From the sequence record OQ708376.1: 64,000 bases of DNA, one strand, 5' to 3'. Position numbers and translations under genes: made by a program. This document shows, one piece after another, positions 6,504 through 11,483 of the stretch. A model generated the notes under the pieces. It was given only the letters and a program-made list of their open reading frames with translations, searched no databases and was not told the DNA's origin. Each line of letters begins with the position of its first letter. Positions within the stretch are counted from its first letter, which is position 1. Source of the DNA: Escherichia phage vB_EcoM_CRJP21.

Positions 6504-7058
6504 ATGAAATCTAAACCACAAATAGACGAAGCACTGGGATTACCTAGTGCTCAACAATGGATTGAAATGACTGGTCAAGAACCAGAAGAAGATACAGAAA
6601 TGGATTTGTATCAGGATGAAGACAAAACTGAAACTGAAATATCATTGGAAGATGCAAAGATTGCAATGGAAAAGCTCAAAGCAATGCGTGTACAGTTGAG
6701 GGAATTACCTGATATTACTGCAAGAAAAACCCAATTGGATCGTTTAGCACAAATGGCAGAACGAAAGTTTGAGGATATTTTTGATAGAGCATTTAATTGT
6801 GAAGATCGTTTTGCAGCAGAGATGATTAATGCTGCAAACTCTATGCTAAAAATAGCTCTTGATGCTCATGCAAAAATAATTGATTCAGATGTTAAATTAG
6901 TTGATCTCCAACTTAAAAAAGACAAAATGGAAATTGAACTAAATTTGAAACCAAAAAAAGAACTTGAGTCTGTTGGTGACCCAGATGCAATTGAAGGGCA
7001 AACCGTAGTTCACAAAACCCGCAATGAAATGCTTGCATCAATGAACAGAAATAAATAA
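6504..7058 (+). CDS. Hypothetical acidic coiled-coil protein
   Basis: 184 aa; E/D/K-rich with heptad-like stretches; no catalytic motif. Confidence 0.5.
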
Positions 7059-7085
7059 CTTAAACGACCTTATGGAGTTATTAAA

Positions 7086-7622
7086 ATGAATAGATTACAA
7101 CAAATCCTAACTGAAAAGAAACCAGTTTATGAATACCGAGTTAAGTTTGCAGTTGAACCAACACCTGAGCAACTTAGTAAAGTAACACAGCGACTAATGG
7201 ATCGCTATGATGCGTTTGAAATTGGAGCACTAAAGAAAACAATTTTTATGGAAAAACCATTAGATTTCTATGAATTAGATTGTGGTGAAATTTGGATGTT
7301 TGACTTTAAATGTCATCGTGGCGTTCAATCAAATGTACTAATGTATGAAATTGGCAATTTACTAAGCATGACAGAAGCATTGATTCGTGTTCGTAGTAAA
7401 GATGAACCTCGTCAAATTGAAATGACTGATTTGGAAGATGATATCGATTTTGATGATGTTGATGAACCAGTTATTGGAGTGGATTTTGGTAAACCAGAAG
7501 ACAGTTATGACTTAGCTGGACAACAACGTGCAAACACTGCCGTTGATGATGCAATTGAAGCATCGAAAAAAGACAATAAATACTCTCAATATATGAGTGC
7601 TGGTTTTGGTAAAAAGGATTAA
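7086..7622 (+). CDS. Hypothetical protein with acidic C-terminal half
   Basis: 178 aa ORF tightly spaced in the same-strand block; no recognisable motif. Confidence 0.5.
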   Translation: MNRLQQILTEKKPVYEYRVKFAVEPTPEQLSKVTQRLMDRYDAFEIGALKKTIFMEKPLDFYELDCGEIWMFDFKCHRGVQSNVLMYEIGNLLSMTEALIRVRSKDEPRQIEMTDLEDDIDFDDVDEPVIGVDFGKPEDSYDLAGQQRANTAVDDAIEASKKDNKYSQYMSAGFGKKD

Positions 7623-7625
7623 CAC

Positions 7626-8168
7626 ATGAGTATACTTAATGAAATGTTAGATTATGAAGACAATGAGTTAAATGAAGCTCGTCCTTATAGTCGTTCACAA
7701 AGTGCAGTTGATAGTGCAAAAGGAAAAGTAAAAGGCTTTTTTGGTAGTGGACAGATTGAACAAGGTGCACAAGAAGTTGGTGCTGAAGCCAACCGCTTAT
7801 GGGCAGAGTTTAAACGTTATGTTGGACGTAAATATGGTAAAGCTCAACCATCAGTACCTTACGCTGATGTGGCACAGTTTTTTAAAGGTAACAATCTTGA
7901 TATTAAACATTTAGGGAACAATCCTCGTCGTTCTTTTACACCAAAAGATGTAGGTACTGCTCTATTAAATGCTGCTCGTGATATAATGAATGACTACCGT
8001 GACCAACAAGGTGGCGAAGAAAGTTCAGAATCACAACCATCACAATCGACCTCAACTGAGCAACCAGCACAACAAGAACAACCAAAAGCACAAGGTTCCA
8101 GTATCCCTGATGCTCTACAAAAATTAAGTCCAGAGCAACGCGACCAACTGTTACGTATGCTTTCTTAA
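7626..8168 (+). CDS. Hypothetical protein with Q/S/E-rich low-complexity C-terminus
   Basis: 180 aa; starts 4 nt after the previous stop. Confidence 0.5.
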   Translation: MSILNEMLDYEDNELNEARPYSRSQSAVDSAKGKVKGFFGSGQIEQGAQEVGAEANRLWAEFKRYVGRKYGKAQPSVPYADVAQFFKGNNLDIKHLGNNPRRSFTPKDVGTALLNAARDIMNDYRDQQGGEESSESQPSQSTSTEQPAQQEQPKAQGSSIPDALQKLSPEQRDQLLRMLS

Positions 8169-8181
8169 GGAGAATCAACAC

Positions 8182-9699: not shown

Positions 9700-9721
9700 T
9701 AACTAAAAGGATTTATTTAAA

Positions 9722-10702
9722 ATGGCTAAAAAAATTAATGAAGCACAAGTTAAAATCGATATCGCAGGTTTAGAATCTGATGATTTGGAAACTCTATCAC
9801 GTATGTTAGCTCTTGCTGGTCAAGCTGAACGTCAAGACCCAGTAGTTGCCGCTCCAGTACCATCTATGGGGTCTATGACTCCATCTCTTCCACCTATTGC
9901 TCCACTAGATCTCGATTCTATTGGTGCTGAAGAAGAAATTGGTGGAATTGAAACTTCAGTTGAAGACCCACTAGCAGCGGCAGTTGATGATCTTTCCGCT
10001 GATGTTGGTGATTTTGGTGCTGACACAGATGAAGTTAGTATGGATGCTGAATTTTCAGAACCAGGTGTAGAAGGTGAAGAAGATTTTTCTCTTGACCTTA
10101 GTGGTCAACCTCAACTAGAATCAGTTGAAGAAGACGATGAGGAAGAAGAAGAAATTATTGAAGAAGAATTCGATTTTAGTCGTATGCTATCTCTTGCTGG
10201 TATTAACGAAGAAGAAGACGAAGATTTTTCAGTAGAGGGTAATCCTGCTACCGATAAAGAAATGAAAGATACCCAATTTCTACCAGATCTAAGTATCTCT
10301 GAAGATGAAGAACCATCTAACAGTACTGATTATGGTCCATATGAAACAGAAGCTGATGCCGTTCGTGATGGTCAACTAAAGACTAATGGTGTTGAAGGTG
10401 ACCATTTTGTTGTAATTGCAAAAGGCAATCAATTTTATTGGAGACGTGTTGTAGATGAAGATCTTGACAATCGTCCAGAACCTGAGTATTATGATAATGA
10501 AGGGAACGAAAATCGTGTTCATAAATTTGAACCAAAATTCCCAGGCACTGCATTAGGAGATAACCCACTAAATGTTAATGAAAGTGAAGAAGATGATTCA
10601 CCTGAAGGTAACATTGACTTGGAAGATGATTCTGATGAAGAAGTAGAAGATATTTTTGAAAGTCTCCAAGAAAAATACAAGAAATTTTTAGGAGACAAAT
10701 AA
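9722..10702 (+). CDS. Hyper-acidic protein with internal repeats (candidate internal virion protein or DNA mimic)
   Basis: 326 aa with very high D/E content, including EEDDEEEEEIIEEE; repeated LSRMLALAG / FSRMLSLAG motif. Confidence 0.55.
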   Translation: MAKKINEAQVKIDIAGLESDDLETLSRMLALAGQAERQDPVVAAPVPSMGSMTPSLPPIAPLDLDSIGAEEEIGGIETSVEDPLAAAVDDLSADVGDFGADTDEVSMDAEFSEPGVEGEEDFSLDLSGQPQLESVEEDDEEEEEIIEEEFDFSRMLSLAGINEEEDEDFSVEGNPATDKEMKDTQFLPDLSISEDEEPSNSTDYGPYETEADAVRDGQLKTNGVEGDHFVVIAKGNQFYWRRVVDEDLDNRPEPEYYDNEGNENRVHKFEPKFPGTALGDNPLNVNESEEDDSPEGNIDLEDDSDEEVEDIFESLQEKYKKFLGDK

Positions 10703-10703
10703 T

Positions 10704-11099
10704 ATGCAATATAATTATCGTGAACTAGTTGAAGCGTTAGACGAAATTACCGGAAGAGATGAAGACGAAAGTTTTTCAGTTGAAGTTGAATCCGATGTTG
10801 TAGCAGTTGATGTTCTTAAGGATATTACCAAATGTCTTATTGATATTGTTGATAAGATTAAATCTGGTGAAGACCAAAAAGAAATTGTAGATAAACTACA
10901 AAAAGCCTGTGACATTTTGTCTGACATTCGATATAATGATGAAAGTACTGAAGTTGCTGATGAAGAAGTGTTGGAAGCCATTGCAGGTTGTTTTGGAACT
11001 GAAGGTATGGGACCATCAATTGACAAAGAAGGCGTACAACACTATAATGAGCCTGGTGCACCATCTTATGCTGCACGTCAAGGTTTTGTTGGAGACTAA
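10704..11099 (+). CDS. Small acidic hypothetical protein
   Basis: 131 aa, D/E-rich; start overlaps the previous stop region. Confidence 0.5.
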   Translation: MQYNYRELVEALDEITGRDEDESFSVEVESDVVAVDVLKDITKCLIDIVDKIKSGEDQKEIVDKLQKACDILSDIRYNDESTEVADEEVLEAIAGCFGTEGMGPSIDKEGVQHYNEPGAPSYAARQGFVGD

Positions 11100-11102
11100 T
11101 AT

Positions 11103-11483
11103 ATGTTTCCAGAACCATCACATAACAGTACTGAATATCAAAATAATGTACTTTCCAAAGTTAGGGAAGTACATGAATCAGATTCAGAAATAACAGACCG
11201 TATGCTTCTGATGTCAATTTTTGAAAATTTCAGAACTGGCGGTGGTTTACGTCTTAGCAAGTTTGGGTATGGAATTTGTAAAGAAAATAATCTTTATGAA
11301 TTTACCAAAATCCCCTTGCAAAGAGAATTTAAAAGTTCTATAATGTTTACATCACTTGACAGAATATGTACTTCACCTTATTATGTTGAAGGTCAGTACA
11401 TATATCTGACAGATGCAATGATAATAACTGAATTAACATTGTGTTGTGATGATTTTAAACAGTTATTTTCTATTCATATGTAA
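11103..11483 (+). CDS. Hypothetical protein
   Basis: 126 aa; last ORF of the plus-strand block before the promoter-rich intergenic region. Confidence 0.45.
   Translation: MFPEPSHNSTEYQNNVLSKVREVHESDSEITDRMLLMSIFENFRTGGGLRLSKFGYGICKENNLYEFTKIPLQREFKSSIMFTSLDRICTSPYYVEGQYIYLTDAMIITELTLCCDDFKQLFSIHM

Follow-up and report, generated by a model that had tools for sequence, protein, structure and literature searches.

The window, a 64,000-nucleotide stretch of Escherichia phage vB_EcoM_CRJP21 (OQ708376.1), comes from an Asteriusvirus jumbo myophage and is 99.9% identical to phage G17 and 99.8% identical to phage 121Q. Seven tightly packed ORFs (A to G) occupy 6504-11483 on the + strand; all coordinates were verified. 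Each ORF begins with an ATG preceded by a GGAG/AGGA-type ribosome-binding site and the spacing between neighbors is 1-27 nt, which bears out the seven-ORF block delimited in an earlier sequence-only reading of this DNA. A gp4-like gene lies directly upstream on the same strand, and the MoxR and VWA genes (11797..14621) are downstream neighbors outside the virion module. The features are as follows:

6045..6473, + strand: gp4-like head completion protein whose N-terminal domain is a TnsA-like endonuclease domain (phrog_218 'head closure', 1.8e-40; PF08722, 60.7 bits)
6504..7058, + strand: A, 184-aa acidic helical protein (pI 4.77, net charge -12)
7086..7622, + strand: B, 178-aa virion protein with a ferredoxin-like domain and an acidic disordered C-terminal tail
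7626..8168, + strand: C, 180-aa virion protein with LNE at aa 4-6 (nt 7635-7643) and aa 15-17 (nt 7668-7676)
8182..9699, + strand: D, 505-aa virion protein (three repeat modules; disordered linkers; four-helix bundle at the C-terminus)
9722..10702, + strand: E, 326-aa hyper-acidic virion protein (pI 4.05, 29.4% D+E, net charge -75)
10464..11627, + strand: six near-consensus sigma70 promoters distributed over the 3' end of E, the F and G genes and the spacer between G and MoxR
10704..11099, + strand: F, 131-aa acidic virion protein (pI 4.10, net charge -21)
11103..11483, + strand: G, 126-aa globular protein containing Cys; conserved sigma70-type promoters within F precede it
11797-13122, + strand: MoxR-type AAA+ ATPase (Pfam and PHROG matches)
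13197-14621, + strand: DUF2201 metallopeptidase-like/VWA protein (Pfam and PHROG matches)

The gene order sheath, three tube paralogues, gp4-like gene, A to G, MoxR and VWA is shared unchanged by 11 phages that represent at least four named genera, and the block is strictly syntenic throughout the Rak2-like clade. None of the seven ORFs reaches a Pfam family cut-off and each matches just its own small PHROG, in agreement with the earlier statement that they carry no recognizable motif. Their description as unknown proteins does not hold, since proteomics has led to a 'structural protein' annotation for five of the seven in 121Q.

Published mass spectrometry of related phages detected all five of B to F in RaK2 virions (gp047-051). 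B was recovered from GAP32, CBB, phAPEC6 and JP4 as well, C from GAP32, D from GAP32 and phAPEC6, E from CBB and phAPEC6, and F from CBB. No other protein of the block is as conserved as B or has been detected as often. C is represented by 3 peptides in RaK2 (gp048) and F by 2 in RaK2 and 1 in CBB; the peptide counts of E and F are low (1-5). No peptides of A or G appear in any of these five virion proteomes. The published searches considered fully tryptic peptides only, so that N-termini made by a protease would be invisible to them. Virion proteomics, which the sequence-only reading had proposed as a check on packaging, was thus already available for relatives, and it places B to F, but not A or G, in the particle.

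While the presence of B to F in virions is already known, the new element is an N-terminal tag. As judged from alignments of orthologues, a peptide of 7-17 residues at the N-terminus of A, C, E and F is conserved; its last residues are [ILV]-x-E, and Ala or Ser comes next. The candidate propeptides end at IDE9↓A in A, LNE6 and LNE17↓A in C, INE7↓A in E and LVE10↓A in F (the arrow marks the presumed cut), and the orthologues are alike. The motif [ILV]xE[AS] occurs within the first 21 residues of four of the seven block ORFs, compared with a single case among the window's 36 other ORFs and another among 47 non-structural genes of 121Q (Fisher p = 2e-4, the stricter A/S rule having been noticed only after inspection of the data). 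The a-priori form, [LI]xE in the first 14 residues, is found in 5/7 block ORFs and 16/100 controls (p = 0.003), a loose pattern that is itself common (22% of 64 control genes). In T4, gp21 cleaves after L/I-x-E, and the first 10 residues of IPIII are a capsid-targeting sequence (PMC9026906). The signature on A, C, E and F corresponds to this T4 gp21 cleavage and capsid-targeting signature, from which we infer that these four proteins are cleaved in the same way.

A protease of the appropriate type is encoded by these phages. The product of 121Q gene 601 is a gp21-type prohead protease (Peptidase_S77, PF03420, 74.6 bits; phrog_207, 1.3e-58) whose gene is flanked by Portal_T4 and Gp23 matches in a T4-like module of portal, protease, scaffold and gp23-type capsid genes. 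The same signature is present, in three genera, on the phage's own prohead proteins: the scaffold begins MSKLEKLLKE↓S, the hyper-acidic gene-600 protein begins MANLKLLQE↓A, and the gene-599 protein has IFE↓S. The capsid protein has LNE↓S and L[TFR]E↓S sites at aa 41-44 and appears to lose its propeptide: cleavage behind E43 should leave 37.2 kDa, matching the SDS-PAGE estimate of 37 kDa (Hua 2017), and tryptic peptides from residues 17-60 of the CBB capsid protein were never observed although the 96-116 peptide was seen 13 times, as propeptide cleavage would produce.

The tagged proteins differ in the rest of their sequence. A has the conserved N-terminus MK.K..[VI]xE↓ALGLP (IDE at nt 6522-6530), with E9 followed by Ala in all 11 orthologues; its Vibrio-phage orthologue is annotated 'coil containing', and neither a Pfam nor a PDB match was obtained for A. 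The two LNE sites of C, kept in 10/11 and 9/11 orthologues, stand just before a conserved RPYSR motif, which is accompanied by a Q/S/E-rich low-complexity region and a terminal LLRMLS. The PHROG label of C as Hsp70 is an annotation artefact, as this 180-aa protein with a low-complexity tail has no HSP70 Pfam match. In F, LVE↓A lies at aa 8-11 (nt 10725-10733), in a register identical to that of the T4 capsid-targeting sequence, and is kept in 9/11 orthologues; the C-terminal end GMGP...SY...GFVG is also conserved.

E begins MAKKINE↓A (INE at nt 9734-9742), a motif conserved in 11/11 orthologues, and consists of an acidic low-complexity half, a conserved ISE↓DE site (nt 10295-10303) and a small C-terminal domain (nt 10304-10660) that ends at a conserved IFE↓S, 13 aa from the C-terminus. 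The reported duplication was confirmed, with SRMLALAG at aa 26-33 (nt 9797-9820), SRMLSLAG at aa 153-160 (nt 10178-10201) and an EEEEE run at aa 140-144, and the pI and charge values listed above for E and F substantiate the claim that both are extremely acidic. Among the 93 members of the E family, 85 have the N-terminal motif, 91 the C-terminal I[FLY]ES and 73 a double RMxxLAG-like motif, so that the duplication is conserved and not a product of chance. Net charge in the family ranges from -41 to -87; the acidic region differs in length and sequence, and what is conserved is the charge, the termini and the short motifs. Judged by its composition, E looks largely disordered, unlike a folded DNA mimic. 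Peptides from the N- and C-terminal halves of the CBB orthologue were partly found in different gel slices. The peptide QINEASVR, which would span the INE site, is absent from the CBB table, and the product of cleavage there is too short for detection.

B and D are untagged, and they are the two proteins to which structure prediction was applied. The ferredoxin-like domain of B spans residues 13-105 (nt 7122-7400), and its LTE is unconserved among orthologues and uncut in CBB virions, where the N-terminus is intact. D, like G, lacks a conserved protease-type N-terminus. The three internal repeats of about 100 aa noticed earlier in D were verified by local alignment against shuffled sequences (R1-R3, z = 18.5; R2-R3, z = 8.0; R1-R2 weak, z = 2.8) and by an AlphaFold2 model with three like modules (aa 10-107, 130-250 and 300-405; nt 8209-8502, 8569-8931 and 9079-9396) followed by the C-terminal helical bundle (nt 9526-9690). 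Repeat number varies from 2 to 5 among phages.

Ten promoters in the 64-kb window score at least 11/12, and six of them cluster at 10464..11627, all on the + strand; one of the cluster is conserved in RaK2, 7t3 and Turkey5. The cluster marks where the early MoxR/VWA unit takes over, and G is probably part of that downstream module. The block is therefore heterogeneous: A and G are undetected in virions, B is uncut at its N-terminus and G lies behind early-type promoters.

With slightly better than even confidence, we interpret the tagged block proteins as internal head proteins targeted to the prohead core. The block would be a conserved late-gene module of Rak2-like jumbo myophages whose products enter the prohead by a T4-style route, in which the N-terminal propeptide of A, C, E and F (7-17 residues) docks the protein onto the scaffolding core and is then removed by the Peptidase_S77 protease. 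E would probably also lose its 13-residue C-terminal tail at IFE↓S, and a cut at ISE↓DE might separate its acidic disordered half from the small folded domain. C, E and F would be retained in the DNA-filled head, probably along with the untagged B and D, whereas A, as a factor of the core or of assembly, would be degraded or leave the head. The packaged internal-head or scaffold half of the earlier proposal is supported by the recovery of B to F from virions of several relatives and by the signature on A, C, E and F, which agrees with the specificity of the phage's gp21-type protease.

An inner body is visible by bubblegram imaging in 121Q (PMC5646251) and measures 91 x 18 nm in phAPEC6 (PMC7247149); the authors found no homologues of phiKZ inner-body proteins. 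The tagged block proteins are plausible parts of this structure. Hyper-acidic, largely disordered proteins, being unable to bind DNA, would separate from it as a protein-only phase, which would fit the radiation-sensitive 91 x 18 nm body. A more far-reaching version, which we put forward tentatively and consider rather doubtful, is that B to F and the gene-600 protein form a second, independently evolved inner body, a DNA-excluding rod, for the most part of hyper-acidic disordered polypeptides, whose proteins are loaded in T4 style, trimmed by the gp21-type protease and expelled ahead of or with the 350-kb genome.

Several observations run against assigning the block to the head interior. It adjoins the tail tube genes and is far from the head-gene cluster; B, its most abundant member, is uncut at LTE; the untagged B and D could sit on the neck, the tail or the capsid exterior; and the DNA-organizing candidates proposed by Wagemans et al. 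are RCC1-like proteins. No sequence or fold likeness of the block proteins to T4 internal proteins or phiKZ inner-body proteins was found: there are no Pfam or PHROG cross-matches to T4 IPI, IPII, IPIII or Alt and no PDB matches for A, B and D, and for phiKZ_IP (PF12699) the sole match is F (E = 0.036), whose 13.7 bits fall below the cut-off of 27.

Part or even all of the set found in virions, and B and D in particular, might instead be external or associated with the neck or tail, as collar or sheath decorations or anchors of 'hairy' fibres co-transcribed with the tube and head-completion genes. The sheath gene, the three tube paralogues and the gp4-like gene indeed precede the block without a terminator between them, B and D are without the conserved protease-type N-terminus, the modular build of D with its variable repeat number is typical of elongated decoration or fibre-like proteins, and in phAPEC6 genes have been assigned neither to the fibre bases nor to the collar's 12 elongated proteins. 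The signature that A, C, E and F share with prohead proteins would, however, be without a role on tails; known tail and decoration proteins are unlike hyper-acidic disordered proteins, and the fold search matched no tail, neck or decoration protein. We regard an external location as unlikely, though B and D may have a place other than the head interior.

Alternatively, the tagged acidic proteins could be assembly-only accessories of the prohead core or scaffold, comparable to T4 gp67 and gp68, and their traces in virions left-over fragments. T4 gp67, gp68 and gp22 are acidic, cut by gp21 and mostly leave the head (PMC9026906), and such a fate would suit A, which is absent from all virion proteomes, as well as the few peptides of E and F; another hyper-acidic tagged protein, that of gene 600, is encoded inside the head-gene cluster. 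It is distinctly unlikely for the group, given that four or five laboratories working independently have reproducibly recovered B to F from purified particles, that both ends of E are represented by peptides in CBB virions and that an inner body exists and needs components.

In size and charge, F (131 aa, pI 4.1) is comparable to mimics of the Ocr and ArdA type. The sequence-only reading had proposed that E and/or F could be injected DNA-mimic anti-restriction or other anti-defence proteins, for which the extreme negative charge of these small virion-associated proteins could be cited, together with the T4 precedent of packaged IPI*, which inhibits a restriction enzyme (PMC9026906). This half of the interpretation is unsupported. 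None of the block proteins has a Pfam match to an Ocr or ArdA family at E <= 0.1, nor did PHROG or PDB searches reveal similarity to Ocr, ArdA or any anti-defence family; the variable acidic region of E is more in keeping with a disordered polyanion than with a rigid surface shaped like DNA; and the genes are core and strictly syntenic across phages of Vibrio, Xanthomonas and E. coli hosts, whereas fast-turnover anti-defence loci seldom are. We consider a DNA-mimic function quite improbable.

The size (184 aa) and helical character of A resemble those of T4 gp16. The annotation of A as a small terminase subunit, a GenBank label of the fEgEco12 orthologue derived from BLASTP and HHpred in that paper, is nevertheless very improbable, as A matches no terminase family in Pfam or PHROGs, a PDB search with a profile of its orthologues yields no small terminase at a threshold as loose as E = 10, the large terminase is 121Q gene 4, far from the block and with two small ORFs directly upstream, and A bears the conserved protease-type N-terminus.

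121Q and phAPEC6 are the only phages reported outside the phiKZ group to have a bubblegram-visible inner body, and the present analysis supplies a concrete list of candidate components (C, E, F, the gene-600 protein and possibly B and D) together with a proposed loading mechanism, a T4-type N-terminal targeting and cleavage peptide. Should the tag work as proposed, it would offer a route to package foreign proteins in the head of a 350-kb jumbo phage, as has been done with T4. Extremely acidic proteins as regular residents of a DNA-filled capsid, if their interior location is correct, would also bear on how long genomes are organized and ejected.

Compared with known systems, the likeness to DNA mimics is confined to the small size and very low pI of F and the strong net negative charge of E. 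Ocr and ArdA are not virion proteins and show no family match here, the acidic region of E is variable in length and disordered-looking, and the block genes are core and syntenic rather than variable. The T4 core proteins gp22, gp67 and gp68 come closer: the tagged block proteins are likewise acidic, helical or disordered and provided with gp21 sites, A is likewise missing from virions, and 121Q gene 600, between the portal and protease genes, takes the place of T4 genes 67 and 68. Unlike those core proteins, C, E and F persist in virions, and the sequences are unrelated and the block unlinked to the head-gene cluster. With T4 IPI, IPII, IPIII and Alt the block proteins share a T4-type head module with a gp21-family protease, and like the IPs they are small, non-essential-looking and present in mature particles. 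The tag resembles the T4 capsid-targeting sequence, an N-terminal peptide of roughly 10 residues with an L/I-x-E end that is usually followed by Ala. The T4 IPs are, however, basic and thought to associate with DNA, while E and F are about as acidic as proteins can be; the block genes neighbor the tail tube genes and form no part of an IP cluster, and for their products cleavage, packaging and ejection are proposals. As for phiKZ and SPN3US, homology to the inner-body proteins is absent, the block proteins are extreme in their acidic, disordered character and the phage belongs to a T4-like lineage, not to Chimalliviridae. The protease motif in phiKZ is S/A/G-x-E, as opposed to L/I-x-E here. 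What the two groups have in common is a bubblegram-positive inner body of similar shape and, as candidates for its components, clustered mid-sized virion proteins with proposed trimming after Glu by a gp21-related protease.

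The block comprises seven plus-strand ORFs (A to G), each with a good ribosome-binding site and separated by intergenic gaps of 1-27 nt, which correspond to genes 556-562 of phage 121Q; genes 557-561 are annotated as structural proteins, and 556 and 562 as hypothetical.

Features of the block and its downstream neighbours
6504-7058, plus strand: A, acidic protein (pI 4.77)
7086-7622, plus strand: B, virion protein
7626-8168, plus strand: C, virion protein
8182-9699, plus strand: D, virion protein with internal repeats
9722-10702, plus strand: E, hyper-acidic virion protein (pI 4.05, 29.4% Asp+Glu, net charge -75)
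10704-11099, plus strand: F, hyper-acidic virion protein (pI 4.10, net charge -21)
11103-11483, plus strand: G, hypothetical protein
11797-13122: MoxR-type ATPase
13197-14621: DUF2201/VWA protein

Upstream of the block lie the tail sheath, three tail-tube paralogues and the gp4-like head completion protein (phrog_218 at 1.8e-40; TnsA-like N-terminal domain at 60.7 bits), and downstream the MoxR-type ATPase and then the DUF2201/VWA protein. The order of all these genes is identical across the phages compared, namely RaK2 (Alcyoneusvirus), CBB and GAP32 (Mimasvirus), BF and fHe-Yen9-04 (Eneladusvirus), Salmonella phage 7t3, Xanthomonas phage XaC1, Vibrio phage 2.275.O and several Asteriusvirus species. 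By megablast, the 6-kb stretch around the block shares 99.9% identity with Escherichia phage vB_EcoM_G17 and 99.8% with 121Q, and its matches comprise 41 phage records, chiefly Escherichia and Salmonella jumbo phages, the closest being of the genus Asteriusvirus. Tblastn finds B in 75 and E in 72 phage records, all of them jumbo phages of the Rak2-like clade, and detects no paralogy of the block to the 121Q head module or the first 50 kb of 121Q.

A sequence-only reading had reported seven ORFs at 6504-11483, two of them extremely acidic, with a poly-E run and a duplicated SRML(A/S)LAG motif in E, three internal repeats in D and no recognisable motif in any. The acidic pair are E and F; the EEEEE run and both copies of the motif in E (SRMLALAG, aa 26-33; SRMLSLAG, aa 153-160) were located; the repeats of D score z = 18.5 (R1-R3) and z = 8.0 (R2-R3) against shuffles; and A-G have nothing above threshold in Pfam and match only their own clade-specific PHROGs. 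ORFs, acidity, motifs, repeats and the lack of family matches have thus all been checked, and the observation is therefore confirmed. PDB profile searches with orthologue profiles of A, B and D gave no matches. AlphaFold2 predicts for D (mean pLDDT 75.5) three like modules (pLDDT 85-95), each a small sheet, a helix of ~20 residues and a second sheet, the rest of the model being two disordered linkers and a C-terminal four-helix bundle; a search for structural neighbours of D found none. Homologues of D are 291-759 aa long, consistent with between two and five repeats. The XaC1 orthologue is annotated as three overlapping ORFs (L015:7134-8990, in a stretch of that genome), which may reflect frameshifts or sequencing errors, and the F orthologue of Vibrio phage 2.275.O is of 69 aa only (L007:11699-11908).

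A reach beyond this clade is seen only for the N-terminal domain of B, which extends to Sinorhizobium phage Phosso and Agrobacterium phage Atu_ph07; there its gene precedes that of the large terminase by a few genes. Searched exhaustively with HMMER, the B profile returned 392 clusters at 50% identity (E <= 1e-3). These far outnumber the cultured Rak2-like phages, and some are fused into larger proteins, the longest of 610 aa. A scan of ten distant members gave no match other than phrog_14802, B's own PHROG, so no annotation is gained. Several database labels found no supporting matches, including the PHROG-propagated 'Hsp70' and the RED-N labels on C, which has no HSP70 domain, and the HdfR regulator label on G; the 'HNH endonuclease' PHROG label on 13197-14621 conflicts with the Pfam DUF2201 metallopeptidase-like and VWA domains there. 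Both this label and 'Hsp70 heat shock protein' on 7626-8168 look wrong.

Virion proteomics, which the sequence-only reading had proposed as a follow-up, is already published and establishes B-F as virion proteins. RaK2 virions contain gp047-gp051, corresponding to B, C, D, E and F, with 4, 3, 7, 1 and 2 unique peptides, respectively (Table S3, PMC3622015), and GAP32 virions contain B, C and D, as recorded in the CBB supplement. CBB virions yielded CBB_210 (B; 13 peptides, 60.5% coverage), CBB_213 (E; 5 peptides) and CBB_214 (F; 1 peptide) (PMC5259590); gp270c (B), gp268c (D) and gp267c (E) were found in phAPEC6 virions (PMC7247149), and B alone among the block proteins in those of JP4. A and G appear in none of these five proteomes, and the papers assign no location or function to the block proteins. 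The earlier description of the proteins as unknown thus holds for family matches but not for the label 'structural', which proteomics had already supplied. The MoxR-type ATPase was also recorded in phAPEC6 virions (6 peptides, 19% coverage), alongside thymidylate synthase, but not in those of RaK2 and CBB; it may be a contaminant or a genuine low-copy component. The presence of B-F in virions is prior knowledge; the targeting and processing signature and the inner-body candidacy presented below are new hypotheses.

Alignment of the N-termini of orthologues from 11 phages revealed a recurrent pattern in four of the proteins, in which a slash marks the proposed cleavage point of a gp21-type prohead protease.

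Conserved N-terminal motifs in the block proteins
A: MK.K..[VI]xE/ALGLP, 11/11 orthologues
E: M.KK[ILV]xE/A, 11/11 orthologues
F: ..YRELVE/ALD, with LVE at residues 8-10, 9/11 orthologues
C: LNE at residues 4-6, 10/11 orthologues
C: LNE at residues 15-17, directly ahead of a conserved RPYSR, 9/11 orthologues

The E family was surveyed in 93 members drawn from genomes and metagenomes: 85 carry the N-terminal motif, and 91 have a second conserved site, I[FLY]E/S, ~13-16 residues from the C-terminus; the acidic middle varies in length and sequence (net charge -41 to -87). A third conserved site in E, LSISE/DE (E194), falls between the acidic half and a small C-terminal domain. In T4, gp21, the prohead protease, cleaves L/I-x-E sites behind the Glu, a specificity originally defined at a Glu-Ala bond, and residues 1-10 of the internal protein IPIII form a capsid-targeting sequence (CTS), which attaches proteins to the core before being cleaved off (PMC9026906). 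The N-terminal pattern of A, C, E and F agrees with both the gp21 site and the CTS of IPIII.

A protease of this type is encoded by 121Q gene 601 (Peptidase_S77, 74.6 bits; phrog_207 at 1.3e-58), flanked by genes for a T4-type portal and a gp23-type capsid protein. The same signature is conserved in the prohead proteins of all four phages compared (121Q, K64-1, pEa_SNUABM_49 and CBB).

Signature in prohead proteins of the four phages
Scaffold: MSKLEKLLKE/S and IQE/A
Capsid protein: LNE/S at residues 5-8 and L[TFR]E/S at residues 41-44
Gene 599 protein: IFE/S
Gene 600 protein: MANLKLLQE/A, conserved in four genera (L011:6880-7728, also L021, L022 and L023, stretches of relatives' genomes)

The gene 600 protein is itself hyper-acidic (282 aa, pI 4.06), its gene lies between those of the portal and the prohead protease, and it has been seen in virions as RaK2 gp091, CBB_254, phAPEC6 gp228c and JP4_335; E and F are its probable partners. 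T4-CTS-like starts recur in two more 121Q proteins labelled 'structural', those of gene 27 (MSKYKKLMEA...; L018:20701-21333) and gene 50 (MKYNQLQES...; L018:35613-37184), which suggests a genome-wide set of candidate head-targeted proteins.

Of the 7 block ORFs, 4 have the motif [ILV]xE[AS] in their first 21 residues, compared with 1 of the 36 remaining window ORFs and, over the first 50 kb of 121Q, 1 of 47 non-structural genes (Fisher p = 2e-4); in composition-preserving shuffles it arises at 3-7% per protein. A looser form set a priori, which asks for [LI]xE among residues 1-14, discriminates less well (5/7 versus 16/100; p = 0.003). The restriction to Ala or Ser was made post hoc, after the data were seen, so these statistics support the targeting idea without proving it; more weight attaches to conservation in divergent orthologues and to the pattern shared with known protease substrates. 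That the capsid protein is processed is supported by the predicted size of the product cut after E43 (37.2 kDa), which matches the published SDS-PAGE estimate of 37 kDa, and by the CBB peptide table, in which tryptic peptides of residues 17-60 were never seen and the 96-116 peptide was seen 13 times. For E in the CBB gel, slices 2 and 5 gave only N-terminal peptides, slices 9 and 11 gave peptides of both halves, and slices 12 and 13 gave only C-terminal ones. Reference proteins of 69, 21 and 15 kDa in slices 3, 8 and 11 are only suggestive, given smearing, of numbering from top to bottom, and the noisy pattern fits a C-terminal fragment of ~13 kDa. B has LTE at residues 8-10 with a non-conserved Glu, and a tryptic peptide from CBB, ILTELTPEYSYR, runs across the site, which shows that B is uncut there.

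G has no protease-type tag and is absent from virions. The window has ten near-consensus sigma70 promoters (at least 11 of 12 matches), of which six, including two perfect ones, fall on the plus strand at 10464-11627, within the 3' end of E, within F and G and in the G-MoxR spacer, and point toward G and MoxR/VWA; a GTGACA-17-TATAAT promoter within F, upstream of G, is conserved in RaK2, 7t3 and Turkey5. Such promoters embedded in late coding sequence suggest strong early transcription of G, MoxR and VWA. On this sequence evidence G and the MoxR module are probably early genes, and the virion module proper would then be A-F. The spacer (11486-11796) holds two near-identical extended -10 promoters (11507-11534 and 11600-11627) and, before the MoxR start at 11797, a stable hairpin at ~11691-11729 (fold z-score -2.8; annotated as a terminator in G17); this arrangement could be a leader or attenuator, or a short RNA of ~100 nt, and an Rfam scan of the spacer found no RNA family. 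The T4 late-promoter motif TATAAATA is depleted in the whole window (2 matches versus ~10 expected), so late expression of the block is not demonstrable from sequence. The phage nevertheless encodes structural proteins of T4-like type as well as a sigma factor of its own (121Q gene 591), and the late promoters of the Rak2-like clade must therefore differ from those of T4.

The best-supported reading is that the block is a module of internal head proteins targeted to the prohead core. The tag and protease site would provide the entry route of A, C, E and F into the head, and the proteomics shows that C, E and F stay in the particles along with B and D. Bubblegram imaging of 121Q and phAPEC6 has revealed a cylindrical radiation-sensitive inner body of 91 x 18 nm. 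The authors of that work could find no phiKZ inner-body homologue and tentatively named RCC1-like proteins, their suggestion for a DNA-organising role. These rival candidates, which may or may not belong to the inner body, have no N-terminus of the protease type, apart from a weak case in gp007 (IYES at aa 16-19). Among the phAPEC6 RCC1-like paralogues (gp001-gp010, L020:1218-14000), 7 of the 8 examined start with the 12 residues MLPF[AG]RM[VIL]KYGN, in gp002 after a 36-residue extension of the annotated start; this tag is unlike the protease-type signature and may serve as a signal of another kind, for targeting or attachment. E, F and the gene 600 protein are extremely acidic and apparently disordered, which argues against DNA binding and for a protein phase that excludes DNA, as a bubblegram inner body does. 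To an order of magnitude, a rod of this size would hold ~19 MDa of protein, enough for ~125 copies of each of the proteins B-F. That A, C, E and F are cleaved, where they lie, that they belong to the inner body and that they are ejected is in each case inferred.

Since B is uncut at LTE and D has no structural neighbour, these two could be packaged by binding tagged partners or be placed elsewhere in the particle; a location on the exterior, neck or tail is unlikely. It is distinctly unlikely that the block proteins are assembly-only core proteins whose virion traces are left over. The earlier interpretation that these acidic proteins are packaged, or serve as DNA mimics or in anti-defence, is partly supported, in that B-F are virion proteins; a DNA-mimic or anti-defence function is very improbable, as family searches gave no match for it, the genes belong to the core and keep their order in widely differing hosts, and the sequence of the acidic region varies. 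That A is the small terminase, as one label has it, is hardly credible, with no terminase match in Pfam, PHROGs or PDB profile searches and with TerL encoded elsewhere behind its own small upstream ORFs.

As a module of head-targeted internal proteins, the block would give a concrete and testable account of the way in which heads are filled and organised in Rak2-like jumbo phages. In its proposed working it is closest to the CTS-bearing internal and core proteins of T4, to which it has no homology and whose internal proteins are basic, whereas the block proteins are of opposite charge. In the structure possibly built, it is closest to the phiKZ inner-body proteins, likewise without homology.
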